Shown one piece after another: positions 683 to 39,180 of a stretch of DNA of 40,009 nucleotides. Source of the DNA: an archaeon (lineage in GTDB: Archaea > Iainarchaeota > Iainarchaeia > Iainarchaeales > 1-14-0-10-31-34). The DNA lies in the NCBI GenBank assembly GCA_043815885.1, contig JBDRIL010000031.1, forward strand, positions 1 to 40,009, given 5' to 3'. The notes beneath the pieces were generated by a model. It made no database searches. It was given only the letters and a program-made list of their open reading frames with translations, and was not told the origin of the DNA. The translations under genes were made by a program, and so were the position numbers. The first letter of the stretch is position 1; each line of letters begins with the position of its first letter.

Positions 683-825
683 GCGGCTATGGTCTATTGG
701 CATGATTCGACCTTGCCAAAAAACTTTTAAAAAAAGTTTTATCAAAAGTCGGCAAAAAAACTTTTAAAAAGATTTTCATGAAATGCAATGAGGTCGCGAA
801 CCGGGTTCGATTCCCGGTAGCCGCA
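683..825 (+). tRNA. tRNA-Gly(GCC) with 72-nt intron at canonical 37/38 (719-790)
   Basis: Acceptor GCGGCTA/TAGCCGC, anticodon stem CGACC/GGTCG, GCC at 715-717, T-arm CCGGG-TTCGATT-CCCGG; BHB with central helix TTGC/GCAA and bulges CA|A and TG|A. Confidence 0.95.
718..783 (+). repeat. Two tandem copies of the CTTTT-NNN-AAAAG hairpin repeat inside the tRNA-Gly(GCC) intron
   Basis: AAAAAACTTTT-AAA-AAAAGTTTTATCAAAA (718-747) matches intergenic copies at 29146 and 35339; degenerate second copy at 754-783. Confidence 0.8.
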
Positions 826-833
826 TTCAAAAA

Positions 834-1409
834 TCATCTGCTGGGTGGAAGGGATTGCAGGATTTTTTCAAGGGCTTCATTGGCAGTTGTTCCTTCTCTG
901 ATAAGCACATAGATTTCATTCCATTTGGCAGGATTGACTTCTTTTGCTGCCCTAAGCAGTCCAAGGATTCTTTCCATTCTGGTTACTTCACTTTTAAACC
1001 ACATCAACCTTTTGGGGTCTTTTTCTGTCCTGAGAGAGTTATTGTGAGAATTTATTTTATTTTTCACGCTAACAGTGTCCATGGAATAATTGGACATTGT
1101 CCAAAATATTCTTGCATTTGAAATCCCTGTTTTCTTTGAAAGTTTGTTTAAGTAATCCCCTGTTCCCTCAGGAAGTTTTTTACTGAATTTTCTGGCCGTC
1201 AAATCAGGTTTTGCTTGAAAGTTTTTTTCAAGCTTAACTGCCTTTTTTTCTTGTATTTTATTAGCTATTTTTGGAACAAAATGAGTTGCTACTGCAGTAG
1301 CTCCAAGAAATAATAGCACCCCCCCAACAACCTTGGCAGTTCCCTTAAAGCTTCTCCACTTTTCTCTCCTCAGTCTACTGCGTATGGAAGGCTTGATATT
1401 TCTCCCCAT
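834..1409 (-). CDS. Hypothetical protein with basic N-terminus and one TM helix
   Basis: 191-aa ORF; hydrophobic VVGGVLLFLGATAVATHFV; no family recognised. Confidence 0.7.
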   Translation of the reverse strand: MGRNIKPSIRSRLRREKWRSFKGTAKVVGGVLLFLGATAVATHFVPKIANKIQEKKAVKLEKNFQAKPDLTARKFSKKLPEGTGDYLNKLSKKTGISNARIFWTMSNYSMDTVSVKNKINSHNNSLRTEKDPKRLMWFKSEVTRMERILGLLRAAKEVNPAKWNEIYVLIREGTTANEALEKILQSLPPSR

Positions 1410-1459
1410 AAAAAAACCAGTATAAAATTAAGGGATGCACTTAAATTTAATTCTTTCTG

Positions 1460-1477
1460 TTCCTATTTAAATAGGAA
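1460..1477. promoter_or_regulatory. Perfect 18-bp palindrome in a divergent promoter region
   Basis: TTCCTATTT/AAATAGGAA; contains a TTTAAATA TATA-like core on both strands. Confidence 0.45.
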
Positions 1478-1530
1478 GGGAAACACTGAAAAAGCTTTAT
1501 TTTTTAAAATAGTTAAGCACTTAATTAATA

Positions 1531-1659
1531 GTTGCTTTCGAGCGGTCTCTTTAAGGGAGGATTGGAATTCTCCTGTGAGGGAGGTATCGGAATGACAAAT
1601 CAGTTATTGCGTTTAAAAACATTATTTTTCATAAACTGATTTGTCACGTAGGTTCTGAT
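1531..1659 (+). ncRNA. Candidate structured RNA or long pre-tRNA leader abutting tRNA-Gly(TCC)
   Basis: Hairpins GCT-TTCG-AGC (UUCG loop), CTCTT-TAA-GGGAG, CTCCT-GTGA-GGGAG (GNRA loop), and a 13-bp perfect inverted repeat 1593-1605/1634-1646. Confidence 0.45.
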
Positions 1660-1787
1660 GCGTTCGTGGTCTAGTGGTTAGGACATGAGCCTTCCACTGG
1701 TGAAAGTTTGCAAAAAACACTCAATGTTCTAGTGATCTTTTACTAGAGAGATAGCTCATTACCCGGGTTCGAATCCCGGCGAGCGCA
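1660..1787 (+). tRNA. tRNA-Gly(TCC) with 56-nt intron at 37/38 (1697-1752)
   Basis: Acceptor GCGTTCG/CGAGCGC, anticodon stem TGAGC/GCTCA, TCC at 1693-1695, T-arm CCGGG-TTCGAAT-CCCGG; intron ends pair (CTGGTGAAAG/CTTTTACTAG); relaxed BHB/BHL junction. Confidence 0.93.
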
Positions 1788-1992
1788 TTTATTTAATTCG
1801 TTTAATTATTCTTTTTTCTGCATTTGGGATGAGACAGTGGCAGAAGGAATAAGGAATAATATAATGCAGCATTTTAAGAAGAAGTGAAATAACATAATGG
1901 ATAAATTAATTCAATTAATAAAATTGATTATAAAAACAGGGGAAATGAGCTGCCCCAAAATTATTTAAAACCAGAAAAAAATATGTATTAAT

Positions 1993-2667
1993 ATGAAAAT
2001 AAACAAAGAACTAGCAGAAGTTACAGGCGTAATTCTTGGTGACGGTTGCCTCTCTGAATATTATGTTAAAAGTGAACAAAGAAGACGACAGGAAATTGCA
2101 TTTACTGGCAGCAACGAAGATTTTTTATATTACAAAGAATTTGTAAGACCTGTTTTCATAAAATTTTTTGGGACGAAAGGCCGACTTTTCATTAGGAAGG
2201 ATGATAACTCTACAAGATTTCATGTTATAAACAAGCCTGTTTTTGAATTTTTCCATAGCATGGGCTTGCCATCAGGGAAAAAACCATCTTATTTAAAGAT
2301 CCCAAATAAAATTATGAAAAAACAATGCTTAAGTTTAGCTTGTGTCAGAGGCATTTGGAATACTGATGGGTCAATTTATCGTCGGTTTACTAAAAGATAT
2401 CCTTCCCAAAAAAAATTTTACGGTAATTATTTGGTTATGCAGTTAAAGATGAATACAAAACCTTTGCTAACACAAGTAAAAAAAATATTAAATGTGGCAG
2501 ACATTGGAACTACTTCAATTACTAAAGAGAATAAAGCATTTGTATTACGAATTACAAAACAAACTAGTATATCTAGGTATCTAACCACAATAGGTTTTTC
2601 CAACAAGCATCATTCCAATAGAATAAAGTCATTCAACATCCCCGCAACAGTTAAATTCTTTTCCTAA
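1993..2667 (+). CDS. Free-standing two-motif LAGLIDADG homing endonuclease-like protein
   Basis: Motif 1 LAEVTGVILGDG, motif 2 CVRGIWNTDG; highly basic; no intein splicing blocks. Confidence 0.88.
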   Translation: MKINKELAEVTGVILGDGCLSEYYVKSEQRRRQEIAFTGSNEDFLYYKEFVRPVFIKFFGTKGRLFIRKDDNSTRFHVINKPVFEFFHSMGLPSGKKPSYLKIPNKIMKKQCLSLACVRGIWNTDGSIYRRFTKRYPSQKKFYGNYLVMQLKMNTKPLLTQVKKILNVADIGTTSITKENKAFVLRITKQTSISRYLTTIGFSNKHHSNRIKSFNIPATVKFFS

Positions 2668-2683
2668 TACTTTCTTCTTGAGT

Positions 2684-2800
2684 GGGCCCGTAGCTCAGTC
2701 GGTAGAGGAAAGGAAATTATAGATTTTTATGATACTCCTTTTCGCCGTAAGCACTTGGCTCTTAACCAAGGGGTCGGGGGTTCGATTCCCCTCGGGCTCG
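2684..2800 (+). tRNA. tRNA-Lys(CTT) with 44-nt non-canonical D-arm intron at 22/23 (2706-2749)
   Basis: Acceptor GGGCCCG/CGGGCTC, anticodon arm CTTGG-CTCTTAA-CCAAG, T-loop TTCGATT; removing 2706-2749 restores D stem GCTC/GAGC; BHB helix CGGT/GCCG with bulges AG|A and TA|A. Confidence 0.93.
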
Positions 2801-2862
2801 CTTTAAAAGAAGGCAGTTTTGGGTTTGTAGCGGGTTCAAACAACTATTTATATACTTTTTGG

Positions 2863-2882: not shown

Positions 2883-2892
2883 ATAACTTTTA

Positions 2893-3180
2893 GTGATTAA
2901 TATGTTAAAGCAAAAACAGGTGCAGAAGCTTAAGCATTCTCCCACTTTGAATACTGTTTTGATGGTTGAGAATACTTTGAAGGATATAGATGAAAGCATT
3001 GTAACTGTTGCAGAACTTAAAAGGAAGTTGCCTTTTCAAGTTAATCATTACACTTTGAAAGTGATTCTTGAATATTTGGAGGAAAGCAATAAGATTGCGG
3101 TTAGTATGAAAGGCATTACTTGGATTCACAATACTAATCCAAATCTAAGGAAAGCTGTTTCTAGAGGACTTGAGTTATGA
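2893..3180 (+). CDS. Winged-helix DNA-binding protein, putative antitoxin (ATG at 2902 is a likely start)
   Basis: HTH/wing pattern TVAELKRKL...LKVILEYLEESNKI...ITW; ATGA overlap with the downstream gene. Confidence 0.7.
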   Translation: MINMLKQKQVQKLKHSPTLNTVLMVENTLKDIDESIVTVAELKRKLPFQVNHYTLKVILEYLEESNKIAVSMKGITWIHNTNPNLRKAVSRGLEL

Positions 3181-3530
3181 AGACTGTTAGAGTCATTCTT
3201 TCGCCTGAAGCAGAAGAAGTATACAAGCACTTAAACAAGGAAGCCGAGAACTCTAAAATTGAAAGAACCATTCTTAAAGCAATAAACAACAAACTGGGCT
3301 TAATTAAAGCAAACATTCATTATGGGCAACCAATATCGAAAAAGTTAATTCCAAAAGAATACAAGGAAAAATACGGAATAAATAATTTATTCAGGGTAGA
3401 ACTGCCAAATTACTGGCGAATGCTTTATTCCCTCACTGAAGGGGAAACAAAAATAGAAATAATTGCTTTTGTACTGGATTTTGTTGACCACACAGAATAT
3501 AATAAAAAATTCAGATACGGGAAAAAGTAA
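3177..3530 (+). CDS. RelE/ParE-superfamily toxin-like protein
   Basis: 117 aa; N-terminal VILSPEAEE strand-helix, LFRVEL..WRMLY strands and C-terminal DH..Y, as in archaeal RelE-like proteins; translationally coupled to the wHTH gene. Confidence 0.7.
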   Translation: MKTVRVILSPEAEEVYKHLNKEAENSKIERTILKAINNKLGLIKANIHYGQPISKKLIPKEYKEKYGINNLFRVELPNYWRMLYSLTEGETKIEIIAFVLDFVDHTEYNKKFRYGKK

Positions 3531-3572: not shown

Positions 3573-3899
3573 TTATAGTAGAAGGCCAATTATTGCTGTA
3601 GGAAGATTCATTGCAAAGGCTACTGTGATTATTCTTTTTGTTTGGATTTCCCTGAGAATTATTCTTAGCATTAATGATTCTGCAAGGAAAACAAATGCTT
3701 CTGTTAAGAGAAAACTCTGAAAAAACTGGTTGAATCCCAATGGAAGGACAAGCCAGACTATTGGAAGGGTTATTGAATTAATTAAGATTGAAGCAAAAAA
3801 CAATTTTTGTACGGGAGTTTCCTTGAAAAAGAATGAAACAAGAATAATTGTTTCAATTAAGCAGGTTAGAATTAAAGCTTGAATAAAGGCATAAGTCAT
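3573..3899 (-). CDS. Small polytopic membrane protein
   Basis: About 4 hydrophobic helices with IET/NSIT/AE motifs; starts 1 bp after the stop of the upstream gene. Confidence 0.75.
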   Translation of the reverse strand: MTYAFIQALILTCLIETIILVSFFFKETPVQKLFFASILINSITLPIVWLVLPLGFNQFFQSFLLTEAFVFLAESLMLRIILREIQTKRIITVAFAMNLPTAIIGLLL

Positions 3900-3900
3900 T

Positions 3901-4455
3901 TTACATCTTTGGCTTTTTTGTTTGTTTGGTTTTCTTTACAAGAAAGTACAAAGTGAAGGCAATTATTACAACAAAAGCGATTACCAGGATTATTACAATA
4001 AATGGATTGAATATCACGACATCTGCTGGGCCTGGAACCAAATGATAACCCGCTTTTTCCGCTTTCATTGTGCCTTCTGATTCATTGAATTCGCTTACAT
4101 TAATTTTAATGTTTTTGTCTGGTTCTAATTGAATTGTGTTTGATGCAAGATATGTTATTCCTTTTACTTCAAGCACACTCTTTTCCAGTGATTGCTTTTC
4201 TTCAAGCCCGCTTAAATCGGAGTTTTTTATTGCATAAACTTTTATTGTCGTATCTAATTTATAGACACTGTTCTCCCTTGCACTAACTTTATTTAGAGTG
4301 TCCTCCCAAAGGTTTCCTGCATAATAGAAAGAATATTCAGGGAAGTCATCTTGATTAGAAAGGTCAAAGGAATATGAAGGCGACGGTCCAATGTCTGCTC
4401 TCACCAAAGCAAAAACAAACAAAGCAATTGTTATGGCAATCAAGGTTTTCTTCAT
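3901..4455 (-). CDS. Exported protein with signal peptide and C-terminal TM anchor
   Basis: MKKTLIAITIALFVFALVRA|D signal; long hydrophobic helix plus Lys-rich tail. Confidence 0.75.
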   Translation of the reverse strand: MKKTLIAITIALFVFALVRADIGPSPSYSFDLSNQDDFPEYSFYYAGNLWEDTLNKVSARENSVYKLDTTIKVYAIKNSDLSGLEEKQSLEKSVLEVKGITYLASNTIQLEPDKNIKINVSEFNESEGTMKAEKAGYHLVPGPADVVIFNPFIVIILVIAFVVIIAFTLYFLVKKTKQTKKPKM

Positions 4456-4520: not shown

Positions 4521-5408
4521 ATGAATCCAAGACAGAAAGATTTTGTCAGGAAAATTGCTTTAGAGAGAATGTACAGGCTGATGGAGTTAGCGGAAGAGAA
4601 TTTTAGGGAGAAGCCTGAAAGAAGCAGGGAATACATTCAGTTAATGAAAAAGATTAGTTCCAGGAATAATACTCCTGTTCCAAGAGAATTGAAGGAAGGC
4701 TTCTGCAAGAAATGCTGCAGTGTTTTGGAGAAGGGAGTGAATTGCAGTGTGAGAGTGAAGAAGGACTTTTTGCTGCTTAAGTGCAGGGAATGCGGGAAAG
4801 AGAAGAAATTGTTTTTAGAGAAAGAGAAATTGGTTATTGGATTGACTGGAGGAGTGGCTTCAGGGAAAAATGAGGTTGCAGGGATATTGAAGGAAAAGAA
4901 AGCAGAGATAATTGATGCAGACGAGATTGCAAAGAAAGTGGAAGAGAAAAGAAAGGTGAAAGGAAGGATTGTGGGGGAGTTTGGAAAAGGGATTTTGAGG
5001 GATGGAAGGATTGAGCATAAAAAATTGGGGGAAATTGTTTTTTCTGACAGAAGGAAGTTAATGAAGTTAAATGGAATTGTTCATCCTCCTGCATTAAAGG
5101 AAATAAGGAAGAAAGTGAGAAAGAGCAGGAAGAAGGTCGTGGTGATTAATGCTCCTTTGTTGCTGGAAGCAGGAATGAATGGAGAAGTGGATAAAGTGAT
5201 TGTTGTTTCCTGCAGCAGGGAAAAGCAGTTGGAGAGGCTGGAAAAGAGAGGTTTGAGCAAGGAAGAGGCATTGAATAGGATTAATGCGCAGATGCCTTTA
5301 AAGGAAAAGGAAAGCAAGGCTGATTTTGTTATAGAGAATAATAATGGTTTAAAGGAATTAAGGAAGAGAGTATTATTGGTGTGGGAGAAACTGAAGGGAA
5401 TAAAATGA
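4521..5408 (+). CDS. coaE: Fusion of RNase P protein Rpp21/Rpr2 (N-term) and bacterial-type dephospho-CoA kinase CoaE (C-term)
   Basis: N-term IALERM..L...A with CKKC...CREC zinc ribbon; C-term IGLTGGVASGK P-loop, IIDAD, HP, APLLLE, RINAQM, ADFVIEN. Confidence 0.88.
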   Translation: MNPRQKDFVRKIALERMYRLMELAEENFREKPERSREYIQLMKKISSRNNTPVPRELKEGFCKKCCSVLEKGVNCSVRVKKDFLLLKCRECGKEKKLFLEKEKLVIGLTGGVASGKNEVAGILKEKKAEIIDADEIAKKVEEKRKVKGRIVGEFGKGILRDGRIEHKKLGEIVFSDRRKLMKLNGIVHPPALKEIRKKVRKSRKKVVVINAPLLLEAGMNGEVDKVIVVSCSREKQLERLEKRGLSKEEALNRINAQMPLKEKESKADFVIENNNGLKELRKRVLLVWEKLKGIK

Positions 5409-6781: not shown

Positions 6782-6786
6782 TTTTT

Positions 6787-27558: not shown

Positions 27559-27563
27559 TCAAT

Positions 27564-29129
27564 TCACCTTTTATTTCTGGCTTTCTTTTTTGGTTTTGAT
27601 TTGGGATTTTTCTTTGGTTTACTTTTTTTAGGATTTGAGTTGTTTTTTGGAAGAGATTCCTTTTTCTCTTCCTTCTTTTCTTCTTTTGCGCCACTACTTT
27701 TTTCAAAAGCGGTGTTTTCTTTCGGGGCTTCTTTTTTTGTTTTCTGTATTCCTTTTTCCAGCTCATCCCTTTTTTCCTTTGAACCATATTTTTCAATCAA
27801 GCTGTCATCAATCCTTGTGAGTTCTGAGACTGGAAGAATGGAGAGCAATTCCCATCCTAAATCAAGTGTTTCTTTGATGCTTCTCTCTTCGTACTTTCCC
27901 TGCTTTACAAAGCTTTTCTCGAATTTTTCTGCAAACTGCAGATACTTTCTGTCTCTCTCGCTTAAGGCTTCTTCTCCAACTATTGCAACTAATCCTCTGA
28001 GAGAACGCCCTTCAGCATAAGCCGCATAGAGCTGGTTAGATACAGCTGAATGGTCTTCTCTGGTGTTTTTTTCACCTATCCCTGACTTCATTAATCTTGA
28101 AAGGCATGGAAGAACATCAATCGGGGGATAAATTCCCTTCATATGAAGCTCTCTTCCTAAAACTATCTGTCCTTCAGTGATATATCCAGTTAAGTCAGGA
28201 ATTGGGTGAGTGATGTCGTCTCCTGGCATGGTTAGAATTGGAAGCTGGGTTATTGATCCTTTCTTTCCTTTTATGATTCCGGCTCTTTCATAGATTGAAG
28301 CGAAATCAGTGTACATGTATCCAGGATAGCCTCTTCTTCCTGGAACCTCTTCCCTTGCTGCTCCTATTTCTCTTAATGCTTCTGCATAGTTTGTCATGTC
28401 TGTAAGTATAACCAGTACATGCATTTCGTGTTTATATGCAAGGTATTCTGCTGCAGTTAAAGCCATTCTTGGAGTAATCAATCTTTCAATTGCCGGGTTA
28501 TTAGCCAGATTCAGGAACATTACTGTTCTTTCCAATGCTCCTGTTTTTTCAAAGTCTTTTCTGAATAACTGTGCTTCTTCATTTGTTATTCCCATTGCAG
28601 CAAATATTACTGCAAAGTTTCCCTCAATCTTTACCTGTCTTGCAATCTGCAAAGCGATTTCATTGTGTGGAAGACCAGACCCGGAAAAGATTGGAAGTTT
28701 TTGTCCTTTCACCAATGTATTCATTCCGTCAAGTGTTGAAATTCCTGTCTGAATAAAGTCTCTTGGAGGAGACCTTGCATCAGGATTTATTGCTGCCCCG
28801 ATGATATCTCTCTTTTCATCCGGAATTATTTCAGGGCCTCCGTCTATTGGATCGCCTAAACCTGAAAGCACTCTCCCAAGCATGTCCTTGCTGCAGTTGA
28901 GTTTAATGGTTTCCCCAGTAAAACTTACAACTGATTCCCTGTCCATGGCAGAAGTTCCTTCAAATACCTGCACTACCACTACGTCTTCGGAAGAGTCCAG
29001 TACCTGACCCCTTTTAATGCTTCCATCCCCTAGCTTTATGTTCACTAATTCCCCGTATCCTATTGGATGGGTTTTTTCCACAAAAATCAGTGGTCCTGCA
29101 ATTTTTTCTATTGTCCTGTATTCCTTCAA
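27564..29129 (-). CDS. atpB: A/V-type ATP synthase subunit B with ~70-aa Lys-rich C-terminal extension
   Basis: [49 protein letters not shown] start with GAGGTG RBS. Confidence 0.97.
27689..27718 (+). repeat. Hairpin repeat (type 2) embedded in the atpB coding tail
   Basis: CGCCACTACTTTT-TTC-AAAAGCGGTGTTTT; 26/30 identical to intergenic 38082-38111. Confidence 0.72.
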
Positions 29130-29145
29130 CTTAAAACACCTCTAT

Positions 29146-29203
29146 AAAAAAAACTTTTCTCAAAAGTTTTATCAAAAAACATTGTATGCCTCCGGTATAC
29201 AAT
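29146..29203 (+). repeat. Double-hairpin repeat (type 1) between atpA and atpB
   Basis: AAAACTTTT-CTC-AAAAGTTTTATCAAAAAAC followed by ATTGTATGCC-TCC-GGTATACAAT. Confidence 0.85.
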
Positions 29204-29208
29204 AAAAA

Positions 29209-30957
29209 TCATTTTGTGATTTCCTTGAATTCATTCTCCATCTGTTTAGTTATTTTTTCCATTTCTGAATTAAAGTTTTTTTCTTCAATAAAGCGTGCCT
29301 TGGTTAATTTTGTTTTACTGTCGACATTGGTTATTGATTCCACTGCTACACCCATTTCCACTGCAGCATTGGCTAACTTAGCATAATTTAATATTCCTTT
29401 AAGTATTCCGTATTGCTTTTTCAGGCTGCAGTATGAGTCAACCTTATGGTAAGCATTCTGCTGCAGGAATCCTTCCCTTATTACTCTTGCTACTTCTAAA
29501 GTAACTCTTTCTTTTTCAGGCAAGGCATCAGAGCCAATCAATTGGACTATTTCCTGCAAGGAAGCTTCTTCCTGGAGGATTCTCATTATTTCCTTTCTTA
29601 CCTCTGGCCAGTCCTTTGCAATGTTTTCAGCATACCATTCTCCCATTGGTTCTGCATAAAGGGAATAGCTTTCCAGCCAATTAATCGATGGAAAGTGCCT
29701 TCTCTGGGCGAGTTTTGCATCCAGCGCCCAAAAGGTTTTGGTTATCTTTAAAGTATTCTGTGTTACTGGTTCAGAGAAGTCTCCTCCTGGAGGGCTTACT
29801 GCTCCAATTGCTGTAACGCTTCCTATTCTTTCAGGAGAGCCTAAGCATTTTGTTCTTCCTGTTCTTTCATAGAATTCTGACAGCCTTGCTGCAAGGTAAG
29901 CAGGATATCCTTCTTCTCCTGGCATTTCCTCTAAACGGGAAGAGATTTCCCTCATTGCTTCAGCCCATCTTGAGGTTGAATCAGCCATTAGGCTTACATC
30001 ATATCCTTGATCCCTGAAGTATTCAGCGATAGTCATTCCAGTATACACTGATGCTTCTCTTGCAGCAACAGGCATATTAGAGGTATTTGCAATCAATACA
30101 GTTCTCTCCATTAATGGACGGCCAGTTTTAACGTCAAGCAGTTCAGGGAATTCAGTTAATACTTCAGTCATTTCGTTTCCTCTTTCCCCGCAACCAATGT
30201 ATACAACGATTTCTGTATCGCTCCATTTTGCGAGCTGCTGCTGGATTACTGTTTTTCCGCTTCCGAATGGCCCTGGAATGCTTCCTGCCCCGCCTTTGGC
30301 AATAGGGAATAATGAATCAAGAATTCTCTGTCCTGTAACCATTGGAATTTCAGACATCAGTTTTTCTTTTACTGGGCGGGGTTTTCTTACTGGCCATTTG
30401 TGGCTGAGCTTCAGTTTAGTTCCGTTGCTTAATTCTCCAATTGTTTCTGTTACTGTAAAGCTTCCAGAATTAACTTCCTTTATTGTTCCACTTACCCCTG
30501 GAGGCAATAAAATTTTGTGTTTAATGTTTTGTGTTTCCTGGACTTCTCCAATAACACTTCCTTCTATTAGCTTGTCTCCTTTTTTCACGAGCGAAGTGAA
30601 TTTCCATTTCTTTTTCTGGTCCAATCCAGGAAGGCTTAAACCTCTCTGGATGAAGTCTCCTAACTCTTCCCTTAATCTTGGAAGAGGCCTCTGTATTCCG
30701 TCGTAAATAGTTGAAATTAATCCTGGACCTAAATCAATTGAGAGAGGCATTCCTGTATTCTCTACTTTTTCTCCTGGCTTTATTCCAGTAGTGTCTTCGT
30801 AGACCTGAATAATTGTTTTATCTCCTTCAATCTGGATTACTTCTCCCATTAATTCTTCTTTTCCTACCTTCACTAAATCATACATCTTTGCTTTCAGGCC
30901 TTTTGCTGTTACAACTGGGCCTGAAATCCTGTATATTTCTGCTTTTAGCTTTTCCAT
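29209..30957 (-). CDS. atpA: A/V-type ATP synthase subunit A
   Basis: [39 protein letters not shown]; no intein. Confidence 0.97.
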
Positions 30958-31244
30958 AAATCAACACCAACCGTTCTTTTAATTAATTGCCTTAAATCTG
31001 TTTCCTTTCCTTTGGAGGAAAGTGTAATCAAAACCGGCTTCACAAGCTTCTCCAATAATTTTTTTGTTCTGAAAGAAGCTTTAGCTAATTCTTCCTCCTC
31101 CATTACAATCACTCCCACTTCAGGGGAATTTATTGCTTCCATTATTTTTTCATCCACGTCTTTTTCTATAACAAACACTGTTCTGACTCCAGAGAGCTGG
31201 AATCCTGTTACAAAGTCATCGGTTCCAACTACGGCTATCTCCAT
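30945..31244 (-). CDS. atpF: A/V-type ATP synthase subunit F
   Basis: IAVVG..DFVTGF.L.G; C-terminal IKRTVGVDL. Confidence 0.94.
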
Positions 31245-32165
31245 TTAAATCACCAACTGTTTTTCAATTAATTCAAGTGGCAGCTCTGAGTGCTTGCCTC
31301 TGACAATTATCCTGATGTTGTCTGTCTCGTTTTCCTTTGCAACAAAGTAACCTATCACTGGAATCACTGTAAGCTTGAATTCATGAACCATTTTTCTTCC
31401 TTTCTCCACCCATTTTTTTCTCAGGGAGACTCTTTCTTCATTTAAATCAATCTCCTTTTCTATGCTTTTCCTGAATCTCTTTTTTCCTTCAATTATCCCT
31501 ACATCCAGTGCCTTGAATTTTATTTCTGCTTTTTTTGCTCTGGCTTTATTTAATTCATTCAATCCAATAATTTTTTCCTGAACGAATTCCTTTATCTCGT
31601 CCTTTGTTCCTTCAAGCAATTGCTTGTAATAGTATTCATCAAGCCTGTCTTCTATCTCACTCAGTTCTCCTGTATATGTTTGAAGTATTGGATAGTATTC
31701 TGTTTTATTCAGGTATTCGATTGCTTCTTCCACTGTATTGGTTTTCTGTATTGCTTCCCTCCAGAACTGTTCATCGAATTCTCCTGCAGGAATGATCCCT
31801 GGAAAGATTTCTTCGTTTGAAGCCTTTGCCTTGTTGCCTCTTAAAAGCATTTTAATATTCCATACATCCCATTTCTTTAGCCACAGCTTTATATCATCCC
31901 TTGATTCCATTATTGCAAAGTCAATGATTCTCTTGAATGAATGAGCCATGTTTCTGTTTACTCCATACTCTATTAAATTCACGCCGGAAAACCGTGTTCC
32001 CATTTCATCTATCTCTCTCTTGTATTCTGTTTCCCCTAAAAACCTTGCAATTTCCTGAATGCTCATTCTCAGCATTCTCTGGAAGTCCTCTGCTTTGAAC
32101 AGCCTGCTCTTCATTACCCTCACTCTTGTGTTTGTATAGGCATAGCCGCTCTTTTTTTCAGTCAT
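31245..32165 (-). CDS. atpC: A/V-type ATP synthase subunit C
   Basis: Y.Y.NTRVR.M.S.L, WDVWNIK..LRG, KENE..NIR.I.RG. Confidence 0.93.
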   Translation of the reverse strand: MTEKKSGYAYTNTRVRVMKSRLFKAEDFQRMLRMSIQEIARFLGETEYKREIDEMGTRFSGVNLIEYGVNRNMAHSFKRIIDFAIMESRDDIKLWLKKWDVWNIKMLLRGNKAKASNEEIFPGIIPAGEFDEQFWREAIQKTNTVEEAIEYLNKTEYYPILQTYTGELSEIEDRLDEYYYKQLLEGTKDEIKEFVQEKIIGLNELNKARAKKAEIKFKALDVGIIEGKKRFRKSIEKEIDLNEERVSLRKKWVEKGRKMVHEFKLTVIPVIGYFVAKENETDNIRIIVRGKHSELPLELIEKQLVI

Positions 32166-32719
32166 TCAGTGAACACCCTTTTATTGAGTTCACTTAGATT
32201 TTCTTCTATTGATTTTTTCAGGAATACCTCAAAGGTATAATTCACTCTGACTGTGGATGATTCATTCTCCAGAACCACTCCCCCCAAACAATCGATTGAA
32301 GACTTGAATTTCAGGTTTGGAGCAATTCTTTCAATCATTGCTTTGTCTTCCCTGTTTGAGTAAACGTATTTTGCGTCAAGCTCTTTTTCTGCCTTCTCTA
32401 TAAGTTTCTTCAGCAGTTTCTCTTTTTCCTTGCTTTTCCTGATTTTTTCCCTTGTCTTCTGGAATATTTCTTCAAGAACTTCCTTTTTTGCATTCAGTTC
32501 TTCTTTTTTCTGCCATAGCTTTAGTGAAGCAGTTCCTTGATTCAGTAAATCCTTTACTGCTTTTGCTGTCTCTGCTTCCTTGGTTTGCCTTTCTTCCGCT
32601 AGCTTTTCCTTTTCCTTTCTGAGGATTTCTGCTGCTTCCTTTTTCCCTTCATTGATTACTGCTGAAACTTTTTCGTTTGCCTCATTATTTATTTCATTGA
32701 TTACCTTTTCTAATCCCAT
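32162..32719 (-). CDS. atpE: A/V-type ATP synthase subunit E
   Basis: MGLEKVI coiled coil; IDCLGGVV..N....RVNYTF. Confidence 0.92.
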   Translation of the reverse strand: MGLEKVINEINNEANEKVSAVINEGKKEAAEILRKEKEKLAEERQTKEAETAKAVKDLLNQGTASLKLWQKKEELNAKKEVLEEIFQKTREKIRKSKEKEKLLKKLIEKAEKELDAKYVYSNREDKAMIERIAPNLKFKSSIDCLGGVVLENESSTVRVNYTFEVFLKKSIEENLSELNKRVFTE

Positions 32720-32734
32720 TCAAATCTCCTTTAT

Positions 32735-32962
32735 TCAGTTAGCCAATCCAAGGATCATTATCGCTACAACCAATCCAAAGATAACGATTGTTTCAGGGAT
32801 TACTGTTAGGATCAATGCCTTTCCAAAGACCTGTTCCTTTTCTGCAAGCGCTCCTACTGCAGCAGTTCCGATTTCTCTTTCAGCTATTGCTGTAGCATAA
32901 GCGCTTCCAACTATTGCGATTGCTGCTGACAAGGCTATTAACCCTGTATTTATATCCGCCAT
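32735..32962 (-). CDS. atpK: A/V-type ATP synthase proteolipid K/c (single hairpin)
   Basis: Two TM helices; IPETIVIFG with the ion-carrying Glu. Confidence 0.95.
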   Translation of the reverse strand: MADINTGLIALSAAIAIVGSAYATAIAEREIGTAAVGALAEKEQVFGKALILTVIPETIVIFGLVVAIMILGLAN

Positions 32963-32988
32963 TTTTTATCTCCTCCTTTTTAAAATAA

Positions 32989-34779
32989 TCATAAACCAAA
33001 CGGCGAGTAAGGCTCACCGCCTCCTTCATAGAATTTTGTGAAAAACTCAACGTAATGAAGTCTCAGGGACTGCAGGAAAGGGCCCAATATTCCTAATGCA
33101 ATATTTATTCCGTGGCCTAAAACAACTAATATTATTGCCATTACAATGAAGATTCCTCCTGCTTCCATTAATCCTCCGGCCAACTTATTCACTATCGTTG
33201 CAAGCATTACAGAGGAAAGCCCTATTGCAAAAAGCCGTGCATAGGAAAGGATATTGCTTATAACTGAAGGAAGTTCAATTATTCCTTTTACTCCTTCTCC
33301 TTTCAAGAGCAATAATATTCCTCCCAGAATGAGTGCGCCTCCTGCATATAACGCAATTTCAGGCAAATAAGCAAGGTACTGAAGTATAAGGAGAACTGCT
33401 CCTGCTTCCAGTATCAGCCATCCTCCTTTTTCAATGAATGCTTCCTTGAAGCCATGCCTGGTGAATGCATTATAGAAAGCCACAATAAAACCTAAAGTCA
33501 CGTGGACTGCCCCTACAAGTATTGAGATCATGAGCATCAGGTTAATGTCATGCGCCCTGTTCAGTAAAGGGGGATGCAGGAATTCCACTCCAAATGCCTC
33601 TCCAAAAACAAAACCAAAAAAAATTGTTGCAATGGATGCAATCATTAAGGTGCTCAACAGCATTTTTACCTGCCCCTTCATTTTTCTTTTAATGAACCAG
33701 AAAAGAAGAAGAGTAACTATTCCGTACCCTACATCCCCCAACATAAAGCCAAAGAAGAGGGGGAAGGTAATAAACATTATTACTGAGGGGTCAATCTCAG
33801 TATATTTTGGGAGAGAGTAGAGATTCAAAAAGAATTCAAATGGCTGGATTATTTTTGGGTTGTCTAAAGCAGTTGGGGCTCCTTCCTTTTCCTTCAGGGT
33901 TTCAACATAAGTTTTCCCTTTAGTTGAATTCATTATTCTTTCATTTAATTTCTTCAGTTTTTCTGTTGGAATCCATCCATTCACAATAAAGGAATTAAGC
34001 GAAGTCGCAATTCTTAATGGAGCCTCTAATTTTTCGTTTTCTCTTCTGAGGGTTTCCTCTAAATCCAAAAGGAATTCAGCGTTTTCTTTCTTGAATTCCT
34101 GCAACTTTTTTTCAATGTCCTTTATTTCTTTCACTGCTTTTTTTAAGTCGGTTTTAGTTTCATTGAATTCTTCTCTTGCTGGTTCAATTAATTCTGAGTA
34201 GCCTTCTTCTGCAAGAACGCCCCTTATTTTTTCCCTGTATTTCAATGGAACAAATAATGCTATTACCTCTCTGCCTTCATAATCGGATTTAATTAATTTA
34301 TAGTCTTTCGTGGTTTTCTTTATTTCTTCTTCTATGTCCCTCTTTACAAATCCCTTGAATACTGCAAGTGATTCATATCCTGAAAGAAGGTCATAGGGAA
34401 TCATTAGTTTCTCTAATGGCTCAATTGTTTTCGTTTTCTGGAGGAATTCTTTCTCCTTTTCCTTTAATTCATTAAGTTTTTCTGAAAGAAGGGAGAATTT
34501 TTCCCGTACTCCCTGGAGTTTTTTTTCTGCTTCAAGGATATTTTTCATCTTCTTCCTTTTTCCACTTAAACCGAAATAGGAAATCATTGAACGTAACCTT
34601 ATTAGTTCTTCAGAGTAACGGGTTGATTCCTCGAATGGAGTGCCTATTTCAAAGAAATCCTTTCCTGTGTAATCCGTAAGATGAATGAGCTTTAATTCAT
34701 GCAATTCATAAATGACTTTCCTTAACTCCTTTTTCGCTCCGCTGATCCTTATTTTAGTCATTTCCTTTGGCTTAATCAT
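32989..34779 (-). CDS. atpI: A/V-type ATP synthase subunit I
   Basis: P.Y.EIDP, FFGFMLGDVGYG, SYARL.A, LRLHYVEFF.KFY.GGG. Confidence 0.96.
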   Translation of the reverse strand: MIKPKEMTKIRISGAKKELRKVIYELHELKLIHLTDYTGKDFFEIGTPFEESTRYSEELIRLRSMISYFGLSGKRKKMKNILEAEKKLQGVREKFSLLSEKLNELKEKEKEFLQKTKTIEPLEKLMIPYDLLSGYESLAVFKGFVKRDIEEEIKKTTKDYKLIKSDYEGREVIALFVPLKYREKIRGVLAEEGYSELIEPAREEFNETKTDLKKAVKEIKDIEKKLQEFKKENAEFLLDLEETLRRENEKLEAPLRIATSLNSFIVNGWIPTEKLKKLNERIMNSTKGKTYVETLKEKEGAPTALDNPKIIQPFEFFLNLYSLPKYTEIDPSVIMFITFPLFFGFMLGDVGYGIVTLLLFWFIKRKMKGQVKMLLSTLMIASIATIFFGFVFGEAFGVEFLHPPLLNRAHDINLMLMISILVGAVHVTLGFIVAFYNAFTRHGFKEAFIEKGGWLILEAGAVLLILQYLAYLPEIALYAGGALILGGILLLLKGEGVKGIIELPSVISNILSYARLFAIGLSSVMLATIVNKLAGGLMEAGGIFIVMAIILVVLGHGINIALGILGPFLQSLRLHYVEFFTKFYEGGGEPYSPFGL

Positions 34780-35102
34780 GAGAAAACCCCTTTAGTGAAT
34801 TTATCAAGAAGGAATCTGGATTCTTCCTCAGTTTTTTTCATGGCCTTTTTCTTCAGTTCTTCCATTCTGGAGCTGGTTTGCTTTATTAGGGCTTCTTTCT
34901 GCTTTTTCAGTTCTTCTTCTGCCTTTTTTATCTCTTTTTCTCTAAAAGCAGTAATACTGGCTTCTTCTTCATTAATCAGGGTATAAACTGAATCCTTTGC
35001 CTCTTCAATTATGTCTCTCTTTTTCTTTTGAGCGTTCTCAAGAAGCAATGCTGCTTTCTTTTCAGTTTCCTTTATCCTTGAAAGGGTTTCATTTTCAGAC
35101 AT
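34776..35102 (-). CDS. atpH: A/V-type ATP synthase subunit H/G
   Basis: L..IKE.E..A charged coiled coil; first gene of the operon. Confidence 0.85.
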   Translation of the reverse strand: MSENETLSRIKETEKKAALLLENAQKKKRDIIEEAKDSVYTLINEEEASITAFREKEIKKAEEELKKQKEALIKQTSSRMEELKKKAMKKTEEESRFLLDKFTKGVFS

Positions 35103-35314
35103 AATGATTTCCGCACCAAAAAAACAAAAAAATCGTTATTTGACGCAATATATCCAATGAATTATGTGAATAAAAAGTATTTAAACATTTTCTTTAGGGG
35201 AAGGGATTTAATTAATTATAGATACAATTATTAGGGTAATTTTTTATCTTTTTGGTTTGGATTAGCTTTAAATAATTAATTGAATGGAAGGATAATAGGG
35301 AGTTTAGTTTTTTT

Positions 35315-35369
35315 ACTGTATACCGGAGGTATACTGTATTTTGATAAAACTTTTCGGAAAAGTTTTTTT
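35315..35369 (-). repeat. Double-hairpin repeat (type 1), inverted orientation
   Basis: GTATACC-GGA-GGTATAC then TTTTGATAAAACTTTT-CGG-AAAAGTTTTTTT; reverse complement aligns with 29146-29203. Confidence 0.85.
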
Positions 35370-36447: not shown

Positions 36448-38052
36448 TTGGGTATTATATATAAATCAGGGGTGAGGTATTTGGGTAAAAATGAAGAGAA
36501 TAAAGTGAAGTCAAAAAAGAGTTTTTTTAGCGGAAACCACAGGTTTTTTTCTTTAATAATTGTGCTTGTTGTGGGAATGAGTGTTGGATACATTGGATTT
36601 AACCAATTTAATTCAACTCCTTTTGTTGTATTGCCAACAAATACTCCTGTAGTTAAGGAGAAAGTCAATCCTGACGCTGTTCCTGTTGAATTGTTTGTAA
36701 TGAGCCAGTGCCCTTATGGAGTAATGGCAGAGGACGCATTAATTCCTGTATTAAAGGAATTCGGAAAGGATGTTGATTTCACTCTTTACTTTATTGCCAG
36801 TGAAACAGAAACCGGCTTCAATTCATTGCACGGAGCGCCTGAATTGAATGAGGATTTAAGGCAGATCTGTATTGCAGAAAATTATTCTCAGGAAACCTTT
36901 TTCAATTACCTTGCCTGCGTAAACCCTGATTATAGTAATGTTACTGATATTTGGGAAGGGTGTGCTTCAAGCAATGGAATTGATGTGCAGAAAATAAAGA
37001 ATTGTTCTGAATCAGTGGAAGCTGAAAACATCTTAAAAGAACACATCAGGAAAGGAGACGTATTAGGGGTAACAGGATCTCCTACTTTTTACTTCAATGG
37101 AGAACGCTATTCAGGAAACCGTACGGCAAATGCCTTTACCAGGGCAATATGTGAAAGTGCCCCTGAATCAAAGGTCTGCGGGGAATTGCCTCCTGAAGTG
37201 GAAGTGAATCTGTTTGTAGTAAATGATTTGGAGTGTGAGTTATGCGATGCAAGCAGCATAATCGCTCAGGTTAAGGCAATCTTTCCTAAACTAAAGGTGG
37301 AGGAAATTGATTTTTCCAGTGAAGAAGGACAGATTCATATAAAAAATTTTGGTGTTGAATCAGTTCCATTCTTCTTCTTTGATGAAACAGTCGAAAAGCA
37401 CGAGAATTACGCTACAATTGAGAGATATCTTGTAAAGAAAAACAAGTACTTTGAGTTAAAGGTTTCAGGAATTAAATTCACTGAAAGAGAAGAAGTGGCC
37501 AACCACGTGGACTTGTTTGTAATGAGCCAGTGCCCTTACGGAACAATGGCTGAGGCTGCATTAATAGAGATAACAGAAGCAATTCCTGATTTAACCTACA
37601 GCATTCATTTCATTGCAACTGACACTCCTGAAGGATTTGTTTCACTTCATGGAGAACCTGAAGTTGCAGAAGACACTAGACAGGTATGCGTAATGAAGTA
37701 TAATGAAGACAAATTACTTGATTACCTGGAGTGTGTAAATGAAGACTATGGTAATGCCGGAACAGTGTGGAAGGGATGTGCTACTAATGCAGGAATTGAT
37801 GTGAGCAAAATAGAAGCCTGTAGTACGACAGAAGAGGGAGAGAATTTATTGAAGGAAAACATTATCTTAAGTAATGAAATAGAGGTAAATGCTTCCCCTA
37901 CATTCTTATTGAACAACACAATAACCTTTGGGGGCATTTACGCTGAACAAATAAAGCAGAACATTTGTTCAGTGAATGAATTGGATGGATGTGAGAAGAC
38001 TCTTTCAGGCCCAACCTCAACTCCCTCTACCGGCGGAGACCCTTCCTGTTAA
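36448..38052 (+). CDS. Membrane-anchored protein with three thioredoxin-fold domains (two DsbA/GILT-like repeats around a CxxC domain); TTG at 36481 may be the start
   Basis: Duplicated LFVMSQCPYG...F.SLHG.PE..ED.RQ.C...SPTF; central CELC...VP. Confidence 0.85.
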   Translation: MGIIYKSGVRYLGKNEENKVKSKKSFFSGNHRFFSLIIVLVVGMSVGYIGFNQFNSTPFVVLPTNTPVVKEKVNPDAVPVELFVMSQCPYGVMAEDALIPVLKEFGKDVDFTLYFIASETETGFNSLHGAPELNEDLRQICIAENYSQETFFNYLACVNPDYSNVTDIWEGCASSNGIDVQKIKNCSESVEAENILKEHIRKGDVLGVTGSPTFYFNGERYSGNRTANAFTRAICESAPESKVCGELPPEVEVNLFVVNDLECELCDASSIIAQVKAIFPKLKVEEIDFSSEEGQIHIKNFGVESVPFFFFDETVEKHENYATIERYLVKKNKYFELKVSGIKFTEREEVANHVDLFVMSQCPYGTMAEAALIEITEAIPDLTYSIHFIATDTPEGFVSLHGEPEVAEDTRQVCVMKYNEDKLLDYLECVNEDYGNAGTVWKGCATNAGIDVSKIEACSTTEEGENLLKENIILSNEIEVNASPTFLLNNTITFGGIYAEQIKQNICSVNELDGCEKTLSGPTSTPSTGGDPSC

Positions 38053-38081
38053 ATCTGATTCTTTTCTTTTTTTTATTTTTT

Positions 38082-38111
38082 CGCCACTGCTTTTTCTAAA
38101 AGCGGCGTTTT
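38082..38111 (+). repeat. Hairpin repeat (type 2) between convergent genes; possible terminator
   Basis: CGCCACTGCTTTT-TCT-AAAAGCGGCGTTTT preceded by a long T-rich tract. Confidence 0.72.
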
Positions 38112-38120
38112 TCTATTCTT

Positions 38121-38732
38121 TTAAAATAAATTAATTATCGGTTTCTTGAATTTGCTGTAAATCAGGAATGCAAGCAAAGTGAAGAAAATTGAAGCAGTAA
38201 TTGTGAATAAAGCCATGAATTCAATTGCAGTGGAAGGAATTGGGGGGCGAATTACTGAATTGGTTATCCCTAGTGATTGGAAAAAATAATCTGCTGCATC
38301 ATTCAGCAGGAACCATAAAAGTGCTAATGGCAGAAAATAATTCCTTAATTTTATTCTTCCGTTAAGCAAAAAGACTTCCAGGAATAATCCAATGTGGCCG
38401 AATAAGAGGACGAAGTAAATAAATGACGTGGCTGGAGAAAAGTAATAGGAAGAGTAATTAAGCAGGACAAATACAGTCCAGAAGCCGTATTTTAGTGCTC
38501 CTGCAGCTGAAATAAAGTAAAGGAGGTTAAAGGACTTATTTAATTTAATCAGGATAAGGGTTAGCGCCATTAATAGTGCATAGAGAGGGCAGTCAATTAC
38601 AAATATCCAGTAGAGTGGCTCTGTTTGGAGGAGCTGTTCTCCGTAAAAAAAGAATAACCCATAAAGAAATCCAATGAGATTGCATATTATAATCAATGCG
38701 AGTAAATTGGTTTTATTTATTAAATTCATCAA
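38121..38732 (-). CDS. DUF1405-like membrane protein
   Basis: N..G..YG...Y..QL, W.FV.DCP, KYG.W, H, W..LND..DY motifs. Confidence 0.8.
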   Translation of the reverse strand: MMNLINKTNLLALIIICNLIGFLYGLFFFYGEQLLQTEPLYWIFVIDCPLYALLMALTLILIKLNKSFNLLYFISAAGALKYGFWTVFVLLNYSSYYFSPATSFIYFVLLFGHIGLFLEVFLLNGRIKLRNYFLPLALLWFLLNDAADYFFQSLGITNSVIRPPIPSTAIEFMALFTITASIFFTLLAFLIYSKFKKPIINLF

Positions 38733-38784
38733 AAAATAGTTGATTCATTTATTATTTAATTACTTTCCCTTCACTATTATTACT

Positions 38785-39057
38785 GTGGGCTAGGTTGGAG
38801 TGTCAGCGGTACTCTGTTGCCTGAAATCCGCTTTATGCAGGAACCGAAGCCTTTGAAGGCGAGTTCATTTCTTGGAAGAGAATCCTTATTCAATCTATGA
38901 ACTTTCGTCCCGAAGATTAGGCTTTAAAGCCAATCCGCCAGGTTCGGAAGAAAGCAACGGTAACTCTATTGCTTAATGCTTTTGGGATTCACGGAAGGAA
39001 GAAAGAGTAAGGGCAATTCTTTTTCAGGAATTGAATTCCACTTTAAGGCGCGCCCAC
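38785..39057 (+). ncRNA. ffs: Signal recognition particle (SRP/7S) RNA, ~273 nt
   Basis: Terminal helix GTGGGC/GCCCAC; Alu domain with AGCGG/CCGCT loop-loop complementarity; helix 8 CCGCCAGGTTCGGAAGAAAGCAACGG; AT-rich promoter upstream and T-tract downstream. Confidence 0.93.
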
Positions 39058-39066
39058 ACTTTTTTT

Positions 39067-39180
39067 ATTGTATGCCGAAGGTATGCAATGTTTTTTTGAT
39101 AAAACTCCCAATTTGAGTGGAACTCAAATGGGCTCCTTTGAATCCTTGGATTCAAATAGGGTTTTCTAAAAGTTTTTTAC
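39067..39180 (-). repeat. Double-hairpin repeat (type 1) interrupted by a 55-bp insertion (39107-39161)
   Basis: ATTGTATGCC-GAA-GGTATGCAAT G TTTTTTTGATAAAACT [55 bp] TTTTCTAAAAGTTTTTTAC. Confidence 0.8.

Follow-up and report, generated by a model that had tools for sequence, protein, structure and literature searches.

How do the same small hairpins come to lie in a tRNA intron, in a spacer of an ATPase operon, in a divergent intergenic region and at the end of a stable-RNA gene within a single stretch of archaeal DNA? The stretch in question is contig JBDRIL010000031.1 of an iainarchaeal assembly (GCA_043815885.1), which we analyzed over 40,009 nucleotides (positions 1 to 40,009 of the forward strand; hereafter the window). 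An initial annotation had noticed six sites with short triloop hairpins, all of which we recover, and had labeled them a candidate repetitive extragenic palindromic (REP)-like or MITE-like (miniature inverted-repeat transposable element) system. The repeats form a family that lies far beyond chance, and we favor the view, with a probability of about 0.55, that they are a very small, non-autonomous, hairpin-forming insertion module.

Anatomy of the repeats and their departure from chance

The window holds four copies of the repeat (A-D) in its 40 kb, and these lie in unrelated places and in both orientations, which bears out the earlier claim of a dispersed family found in unrelated contexts on either strand. 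They are as follows, where R1 is a covariance model of the core (hairpin 1 plus its tail):

718..747, plus strand: copy D, core only, AAAACTTTT-AAA-AAAAGTTTT plus the tail ATCAAAA (R1 49.5 bits at 717-753)
29146..29208, plus strand: copy A, full unit with the A-rich strand on plus (R1 47.9 bits; folds)
35310..35369, minus strand: copy B, full unit with the A-rich strand on minus (R1 48.3 bits; fold)
39060..39180, minus strand: copy C, full unit with the A-rich strand on minus (R1 fragment at 39088-39117, 17 bits)

The conserved core spans ~30 nt and reads, on its A-rich strand, AAAACTTTT-(3-5 nt loop)-AAAAGTTTT (hairpin 1) followed by ATCAAAA(A)(C) or, on the T-rich strand, TTTTTGAT followed by the hairpin. 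The full unit of ~60 bp found in this genome combines the core with a lineage-specific hairpin 2 and T-runs on both sides. The T-rich strand thus presents, in order, a T5-7 run, hairpin 2 (TTGTATRCC-GRA-GGYATRCAA), T4-7 plus GAT, hairpin 1 and a final T-run that lengthens the 3′ arm of hairpin 1 to T6-8. The three full units can be aligned over ~60 nt, and the copies, compared as inverted repeats, are 88-90% alike. In copy A, hairpin 1 (29150-29170, loop CTC) is followed by the tail ATCAAAAAAC (29171-29180) and hairpin 2 (29181-29203), and in copy B, hairpin 2 (35314-35338, loop GGA on the plus strand) precedes hairpin 1 (35346-35366). Copy C comprises a T7 run (39060-39066), hairpin 2 (39067-39089, loop GAA on the plus strand), a T7-GAT segment (39091-39100) and a hairpin 1 divided between 39101-39106 and 39162-39176. 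The ~55-bp two-hairpin unit of the initial annotation therefore stands at 29146-29203 and 35315-35369; its third instance (39067-39180) is also a copy, but one whose hairpin 1 is split by a nested 55-nt insert that had been missed.

The hairpin-1 pattern AAAACTTTTNNNAAAAGTTTT (arms AAAACTTTT-N3-AAAAGTTTT) has three exact matches in the window (at 720, 29150 and 35346) against 0.08 expected, a number reached by none of 100 shuffled sequences, and the hairpin-2 pattern GTATRCCNNNGGYATAC (GTATRCC-N3-GGYATRC) has three (at 29184, 35318 and 39070) against 0.02 expected; AAAAGTTTTATCAAAA likewise has three exact matches. A generalized hairpin-1 pattern gives six strand-matches, compared with 0.16 under a second-order Markov control. 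The units are also the strongest short-loop hairpins of the non-coding DNA of the window. When folded as single-stranded DNA (ssDNA), both strands of each unit form the two hairpins (z = -3.4 to -6.6), and none of 200 shuffles folds as well; RNA folding likewise yields two hairpins on both strands, and the folding program shows no strand preference. The minimum-free-energy folds of copies A-C contain the two hairpins only, with unpaired flanks, no dedicated search for a bulge-helix-bulge having been made. At or near the units, Rfam reports nothing beyond tRNA and the signal recognition particle (SRP) RNA.

Sites of the individual copies and related hairpins

The host genes, the nested insert and the weaker hairpins to which we refer are:

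683..825, plus strand: tRNA-Gly(GCC) with a 74-nt canonical (37/38) intron, host of copy D (Rfam RF00005, 41.1 bits, E = 1.6e-7; ARAGORN intron option: tRNA-Gly(gcc) i(37,72))
756..776, plus strand: degenerate second hairpin-1 copy, AAAAACTTT-TAA-AAAGATTTT, in the same intron as copy D (hairpin list; R1 8.3 bits, E = 10)
27690..27714, plus strand: related hairpin GCCACTACTTTT-TTC-AAAAGCGGTG, in frame in the lysine-rich C-terminal tail of atpB (coding strand minus); R1 core only, E = 2; membership uncertain
38083..38107, plus strand: related hairpin GCCACTGCTTTT-TCT-AAAAGCGGCG followed by T5; R1 core only, E = 1; membership uncertain
38783..39059, plus strand: archaeal SRP RNA gene, neighbor of copy C (Rfam RF01857, 135.5 bits)
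39107..39161, no strand assigned: nested 55-nt insert with two hairpins, CCCAATTTGAGT-GGA-ACTCAAATGGG and TTTGAATC-CTTG-GATTCAAA, and CCC...GGG ends (folding, hairpin list)

The first-hairpin copy at 718-747 is real but not free-standing, since it lies inside the tRNA-Gly intron, which had gone unnoticed. The module begins at the 5′ end of this intron, and its A-rich strand is the tRNA sense. The hairpin at 756-776 might be a partial tandem duplicate of copy D, an assignment that is weak because of its low R1 score. Copy A makes up almost all of the 79 nt that separate the atpA stop (29209) from the TTG start of atpB (29129); its T-rich strand is the sense strand of the atp operon, and atpB has its own Shine-Dalgarno sequence. 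Copy B occupies the divergent region between atpH (start 35102, minus strand) and a thioredoxin-like gene (35409, plus strand). The first T7 run of copy C abuts the SRP RNA, so that its hairpin 2 begins 7 nt past the SRP RNA 3′ end, and the copy lies downstream of a convergent gene (39192-39986). The nested insert breaks hairpin 1 of copy C after AAAACT and is alone in having inverted ends (CCCAATTTGA and TCAAATAGGG); no second occurrence of it was found in the window or the listed loci (see below), and it has no Rfam match.

The sites at 27689 and 38082, previously described as a related unit, are present as hairpins of the form GCCACTR...GCGGYG (pattern GCCACTRCTTTTTNNAAAAGCGGYG, two matches at 27690 and 38083 against 0.00 expected). 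Their kinship with the family is nevertheless weak because only a 13-nt core is shared, R1 matching nothing but CTTTT-N3-AAAAG in them (E ~1-2). The 38083 hairpin lies between convergent genes, 30 nt past the stop of the gene at 36448-38052. The AtpB tail in which the 27690 hairpin falls comprises ~55 residues (27564-27780, minus strand). Most AtpB proteins are 455-475 aa long, DPANN homologs of 503-534 aa have tails of differing sequence, and some homologs carry inteins instead (~870 aa). In the tail of one relative (P0004), QTFSKSLNKN appears where the other sequences are gapped, a hint at the protein level only.

The core across archaeal genomes

We scanned 185,579 species genomes (596 Gb) once with the pattern AAACTTTTN{2,6}AAAAGTTTTATC and divided the listed loci into archaeal and bacterial by their record names, with L080 removed as a duplicate of L079. 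All counts below come from the listed matches and are lower bounds, and the open reading frames (ORFs) in these loci were called mechanically. The core (hairpin 1 plus the ATC tail) has at least 86 matches in at least 81 archaeal loci and at least 41 matches in at least 37 bacterial loci. The archaeal loci belong to ANME-1/Methanophagales, Methanosarcinales, Syntrophoarchaeum, Micrarchaeota, Iainarchaeota/Diapherotrites and Woese-, Pace- and Nanoarchaeota, with one further locus each from Bathyarchaeia and Thaumarchaeota. Methanosarcina sp. MSH10X1, which can be cultivated, has five copies or more (L001, L018, L103). Hairpin 2 of the window occurs in none of the 119 listed loci; tracing the pair of hairpins through other genomes, as the initial annotation had proposed, thus succeeds for the hairpin-1 core and fails for hairpin 2.

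Conservation extends to positions that the pattern leaves free: the A preceding the core is present in 85 of 86 archaeal matches, each base of the AAAA after ATC in 77-81 of them, and ATCAAAA is followed by A in 60 and then by C in 38. The loops on the A-rich strand are mostly purine triloops (AGA, AAG, AGG, GGA, GAA). A looser pattern, applied to the same loci, recovers further copies with compensatory stem changes (AACC/GGTT, AAGC/GCTT, CAAAC/GTTTG), all keeping the one-sided tail NATCAAAA. On sequence comparison, then, the conserved unit is hairpin 1 together with its one-sided tail. Tandem duplicates are seen in L026, L048, L018 and L021, as well as in the tRNA-Gly intron of the window. 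At L048 (60-200), a 62-bp unit occurs in tandem; it consists of the core and 24 bp from the start of a cysteine desulfurase-like gene, which now has three such starts. Separately, three micrarchaeal loci (L100, L114, L081) have the core 40-60 nt upstream of genes with products starting ..KAQSAMEYLMT, which we take to resemble the N-terminus of an archaeal type IV pilin-like protein. The core could serve as an annotation marker for intergenic DNA of archaeal metagenome-assembled genomes (MAGs).

Canonical tRNA introns house the motif in 8 of the 89 listed archaeal matches, those of the window included (ARAGORN intron option; L064, with a 216-nt intron, is doubtful), and three more archaeal matches come to within 8 nt of a tRNA gene, on its 5′ side in L013 and L074 and on its 3′ side in L068, compared with none of the 41 listed bacterial matches near a tRNA. 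Rfam confirms most of the motif-bearing tRNAs, and all eight intron copies have their A-rich strand in the sense direction. Two further variant hairpins lie in the intron of L074. All three tRNA genes of the window (683-825, 1660-1787 and 2684-2800) have long introns (~74, 57 and 46 nt); default ARAGORN detects none of them, and Rfam at its gathering threshold misses that at 683-825 only. The module offers an explanation for oversized tRNA introns that cause gene finders to overlook tRNAs.

About two dozen of the bacterial matches belong to a ~230-nt element of Clostridia/Oscillospiraceae MAGs, which has several G+C-rich hairpins with covarying stems and the same A/T hairpin in its middle, and which often lies at contig ends. 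It is multi-copy, with eight loci from one Clostridia MAG (L003, L009, L011, L019, L034, L109, L111, L117) and others in L029, L035, L038 and L075; the copies tested have no Rfam match. This element and the archaeal core may share an origin or may have converged on a low-information palindrome. Other bacterial matches, of which those in Flavobacteriaceae are an example, fall within coding sequence and appear fortuitous. In collections of phages and plasmids, a 73-nt query met only partial matches (E >= 0.1). One listed match (L050) is on a 3.8-kb plasmid with Rep_1 and Mob_Pre genes. We considered the motif as its rolling-circle double-strand origin and ruled this out, as CTTGATA, the nick motif of the pC194 type, is found away from it, at position 2051 and ~410 bp upstream of rep.

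A strand-specific GNA triloop

The initial annotation had drawn attention to C-GNA-G triloops on one strand, and this observation gains in force with the wider set: the loop is always on the T-rich strand and recurs in other lineages on at least four different stems. In the window, the hairpin-2 loops of the T-rich strand are GGA, GGA and GAA, closed by C-G. In copies from ANME-1 and Methanosarcinales, GCGAAGC stands at the equivalent place on the same strand (15 sites in 14 listed loci), and other stems carry a GAA loop on this strand in L046 (GCCC-GAA-GGGC) and L070 (CCATC-GAA-GATGG). The d(GCGAAGC) hairpin is exceptionally stable. Since differing stems keep the loop, its closing pair and its strand, a folded single strand is suggested to be what is recognized, and ssDNA is the likelier substrate because the GNA strand is never the transcribed one in introns or ORFs.

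Gene neighborhoods and traces of insertion

If the repeats are mobile, traces of insertion and a mobilizing gene may be sought around them. Transposases are absent from the window, as had been claimed, by Pfam (1e-5) on all 45 ORFs and, for those left unexplained, by NCBIfam and by Pfam at 0.5; in particular, Y1_Tnp has no match among the 45 ORFs or in the relaxed scans, and the sole nuclease-like gene in these scans is a free-standing LAGLIDADG ORF (see below). In the listed loci, 165 ORFs lie within 900 bp of the motif; our scan covered 132 of them and left aside 33 that were second-nearest on either side or came from loci with the match in coding sequence (Flavobacteriaceae, Rickettsiales, Fonsibacter). 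The scanned ORFs are almost all unrelated housekeeping genes; there are one Y1_Tnp, one group II intron reverse transcriptase, one DDE transposase and no TnpB. A Y1/HUH gene flanked by the hairpins, which the initial annotation had envisaged, was found neither in the window nor among these 132 ORFs, and no link of the family to such an enzyme emerged: the lone Y1 gene next to the motif is an insertion target and not a flanked master copy. The 55 listed archaeal matches in loci of at least 2.5 kb lie between co-directional genes (13 one way and 6 the other), convergent genes (11) or divergent genes (8), inside ORFs of at least 100 aa (10) or without a gene on one side (7). All gene arrangements are present, and the family is therefore unlike a plain terminator or promoter.

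The idea that the family spreads as insertions agrees with related copies that interrupt a tnpA remnant and PfkB and methyltransferase genes, and with the at least seven that fill tRNA introns. In L024 (ANME-1), a 5′-truncated IS200-type tnpA frame holds two modules: the first coincides with a 13-residue gap relative to the TnpA structures 2ec2_A and 2a6m_A, just past the HUH motif, and the alignment ends where the second (hairpin 1 plus ATCAAAAAC plus GCTTCG) starts. The 5′ end of this remnant (1380-1460, minus strand) is fused to tRNA-like T-arm sequence, which makes it a truncated pseudogene beside a tRNA fragment. A DNA methyltransferase (L005) has a 19-residue extra segment holding the module, and in a PfkB kinase (L069) the module falls in a poorly aligned loop. 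In all three, the modules are read in one common frame (..TF.KSFIK..). No target duplication was found at the two datable L024 insertions, and the few datable insertions have no common target sequence.

What the repeats may be

We propose that copies arise through insertion and local tandem duplication and would persist where they do little harm, namely in introns, spacers, RNA-gene flanks, variable protein tails and surface loops. Introns and ORFs would tolerate only the A-rich strand as sense, because the T-rich strand carries oligo-T runs and TGATAA. Recognition would take place on ssDNA of the T-rich strand, through the C-GNA-G triloop hairpin, the A/T hairpin and an oligo-T/GAT tag; for the mobilizing enzyme, a Y1/HUH nuclease is no more than one candidate. 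Oligo-T is the archaeal termination signal, and some copies are probably secondary terminators, as with the SRP RNA gene and the T7 run at its end.

Several points weigh against this insertion module. Insertion in this lineage is an inference, and no empty site was seen among the listed loci, which include neither this genome nor its close relatives; nor did the scans of the window or of the 132 neighboring ORFs yield a mobilizing gene, and the few datable insertions share no target sequence and have no duplication of it. Selfish DNA would not usually keep a 28-nt core nearly identical from phylum to phylum, and a conserved host factor could instead account for this. The conservation of the core is also partly by construction because the matches were chosen by exact pattern. 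Four ANME-1 loci (L054, L066, L084, L119) hold the motif at what is apparently one orthologous site beside tRNA-Thr, and these copies would accordingly be old and fixed rather than recently mobile. Within the window, the T-rich strand of copy A is sense in the atp operon, contrary to the tolerance argument. Moreover, the wobble and mismatch positions of hairpin 2 favor different strands in copies A and C, which disfavors a single selected folded strand here.

Chance or low-complexity A/T palindromes without a common origin might be invoked in an A+T-rich genome (G+C of the window 33-45%), given that a 20-base A/T-rich pattern has, by our estimate, some tens of random occurrences in 596 Gb and that some bacterial matches do lie in coding sequence (e.g., Flavobacteriaceae). 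This is refuted by the controls: 0.02-0.08 expected in shuffles against three observed, 0.16 against six under the Markov model, and unspecified flanks conserved in 77-85 of 86 archaeal matches, to which the ~60-nt alignment of the three full units adds. A less easily dismissed but still unlikely alternative is that the repeats are host regulatory cassettes under selection, i.e., compact terminator/insulator modules that might also act as promoters. Archaeal RNA polymerase would be stopped by the three oligo-T runs of the T-rich strand, between which the hairpins lie, and an oligo-T run of at least five T does follow a gene on its sense strand at two sites, namely copy C, whose first T7 run abuts the SRP RNA 3′ end, and the 38083 hairpin, whose T5 lies past a gene stop. 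Convergent genes flank 11 of the 55 archaeal matches, and exclusion of the T-rich sense from tRNA introns (8 of 8) would fit as well. Yet the neighboring genes show no orientation bias, copies within introns and ORFs could exercise neither function (copy D, inside its intron, has the sense opposite to an oligo-T terminator), copy A would terminate in mid-operon upstream of an atpB with its own Shine-Dalgarno and TTG start, and copy B has no co-oriented upstream gene to terminate. For promoter activity, the AAAAG-TTTTATCA half resembles the BRE/TATA consensus. Five archaeal genes begin 15-22 nt past the ATC on the A-rich strand (L048, L049, L061, L072, L108), and two tRNA genes begin 1-2 nt past the hairpin on the T-rich strand (L013, L074). 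However, a spacing of 15-22 nt is less than TATA elements usually keep from the start, there is a C in the TATA-like part, and L074 has a canonical TTTTTATATA ~50 nt upstream of its tRNA; with spacing and orientation data this weak, we set the promoter reading aside.

Two further explanations seem improbable to us, each to a similar degree. One takes the palindromes as duplex binding sites of a dimeric DNA-binding or nucleoid protein conserved in archaea, with A4/T4 tracts at ~12 bp giving bent DNA. Both hairpins are indeed perfect palindromes with 3-bp centers, the core has a 12-nt periodic AAAA-S-TTTT-NNN pattern and is conserved in sequence across phyla, and the half-site variation of hairpin 2 (GTATRCC) is not strand-consistent. 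An operator, however, would not be expected to occur as insertions in ORFs and introns, with nested inserts and tandem duplications. The compensatory stem changes preserve the fold and the one-sided tail, the ATCAAAA tail and the GNA loop are asymmetric and strand-specific, and no regulator gene is consistently adjacent among the 132 neighboring ORFs. The other makes the hairpin and its AUCAAAA tail an RNA-level element of stable-RNA biogenesis that aids intron folding, processing or stability of tRNA or SRP RNA precursors and was secondarily copied elsewhere. Most copies are not near RNA genes, the intergenic ones point either way, neither of the two remaining tRNA introns of the window has the module, no Rfam family matches it, and the GNA loop is on the strand that is untranscribed in introns. 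These facts stand against covarying stems, an intron module that is always sense and at or next to the 5′ splice site, the adjacency of copy C to SRP RNA, and the 11 of 89 archaeal matches in or within 8 nt of tRNA genes, which is far above the tRNA share of a genome.

Beyond the insertion module itself, we tentatively entertain a wider proposal, which we hold to be rather less likely than the module. One ~30-nt micro-element (the TTTTTGAT tag plus the A4C-T4/A4G-T4 hairpin), usually with a GNA-triloop partner, might be mobile across much of Archaea, from DPANN to ANME-1/Methanosarcinales and possibly in Clostridia. It would colonize tRNA introns, stable-RNA flanks, operon spacers and, in frame, ORFs, and would be moved via ssDNA by an enzyme encoded elsewhere. 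Candidates for this enzyme would be an HUH nuclease that is widely shared or a DNA enzyme with housekeeping duties. If so, no transposable unit described in archaea would be smaller or more widely distributed, and the element would also be a source of tRNA-intron expansion and new peptide segments. The 28-nt core in distant phyla raises the question of which enzyme reads so small an ssDNA signal; symbiont-host DNA exchange is one possible route by which it might have crossed lineages.

Other genes of the window

The minus strand encodes a complete A-type ATPase operon (26947-35102), and Pfam also identifies genes for ribosomal proteins, SRP54/FtsY, RadA and RPA among the 45 ORFs. The best AtpB matches are proteins named Micrarchaeota and Diapherotrites by their sources. 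Together with the cassette described below, these genes make it most likely that this piece of archaeal chromosome comes from a DPANN archaeon. Searches of the listed loci with the window (blastn and tblastn) found no syntenic relative. One match is confined to a two-gene cassette of unknown function at 2893-3530 (plus strand), which encodes 95- and 117-aa proteins with overlapping stop and start and corresponds to 3639-4327 of a 20-kb locus from a Micrarchaeota MAG (L012) at 78% DNA and 77-78% protein identity; the remainder of that locus has no match to the window. Neither gene of the cassette has a family match in Pfam at 0.5 or NCBIfam.

The ORF at 4521-5408 (plus strand) is by Pfam a fusion of an RNase P Rpr2/Rpp21 domain with a bacterial-type dephospho-CoA kinase (CoaE) domain, and a 1035-aa ORF (13611-16718, plus strand) without a Pfam family has at least nine irregularly spaced cysteine-rich repeats (..CGNG.CE..). 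The LAGLIDADG-type endonuclease ORF (1993-2667, plus strand) stands free between two intron-bearing tRNA genes, outside any intein or intron.

Comparison with known systems

REP elements are marked by a GTAG or CGTC tetranucleotide tag. The feet of our hairpins read ...TTTTGAT-AAAAC and ...ATTGTAT, with no GTAG or CGTC, and the REP-like label of the initial annotation does not fit in this respect. REP/BIME elements of bacteria are described as 20-40-bp extragenic palindromes with a short tag at the hairpin foot, and their transposases are of the RAYT type (TnpA-REP, Y1 HUH) (PMC3733652, PMC2817692). The present family resembles them in its short palindromes with a tag directly at the hairpin foot, in both orientations and without target duplication, in its mosaics with other hairpins and in a possible side role in termination. 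It departs from them in that its tag is TTGAT(A)/ATCAA, its stems are almost pure A/T, its copies also lie in tRNA introns and ORFs, its core is common to phyla whereas REPs are species-specific, and neither the window nor the 132 neighboring ORFs include a RAYT gene. Lacking the GTAG/CGTC tag, and with no RAYT gene in the ORFs scanned, it is not a member of the REP/RAYT system. The MITE-like label also falls, because the unit ends in T-runs on one strand and has neither terminal inverted repeats nor a duplicated flank.

The IS200/IS605 family and its miniature derivatives (PATEs) share with it ssDNA hairpin mobility and the lack of inverted terminal repeats and target duplications, and IS200/IS605 elements are common in Methanosarcinales, ANME-1 and Clostridia. 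The target of ISDra2 is of a pentanucleotide type such as TTGAT. However, hairpins 1 and 2 of the unit are unrelated, whereas one hairpin type occurs at both IS ends, and the GAT tag is 0-1 nt from the hairpin foot rather than 10-19 nt; no TnpA or TnpB is adjacent among the 132 neighboring ORFs other than the lone tnpA that is an insertion victim. With unrelated hairpins and a tag that abuts the foot, the unit is not an IS200/IS605 miniature. In the tRNA intron transposition of Thermoproteales, different tRNA genes of a lineage have introns of near-identical sequence, whereas the shared piece here is only a hairpin module in canonical 37/38 introns that is also intergenic and intragenic.

Rickettsia palindromic elements (RPEs) are ~100-150 bp long and confined to Rickettsia, and the present module is 36-60 nt long and archaeal. 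An RPE-like feature, an extra segment in an otherwise conserved protein, is seen in L024, L005 and L069 and, in the window, only as the weakly related 27690 hairpin in the variable atpB tail. The mitochondria of Allomyces contain double-hairpin elements, and we know of no enzyme for mitochondrial elements of this kind. Sponge mitochondria carry repetitive hairpin-forming elements (PMC2800124). The likeness of the mitochondrial elements to the present family lies in ~50-60-bp units with two short hairpins in intergenic regions, introns and genes, and the difference in that they are organellar, have stems rich in G+C although the genome around them is A+T-rich, and lack a conserved single-stranded tail. 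Topic searches of literature listings and the openings of abstracts found no description of the motif, nor anything comparable for archaea, particularly for the reduced DPANN genomes, and motif strings gave only unrelated primer or probe matches. Small palindromic repeats (REP, REPIN, RPE) are well studied in bacteria, and by analogy, the family works most like REP, Rickettsia palindromic and mitochondrial double-hairpin elements.

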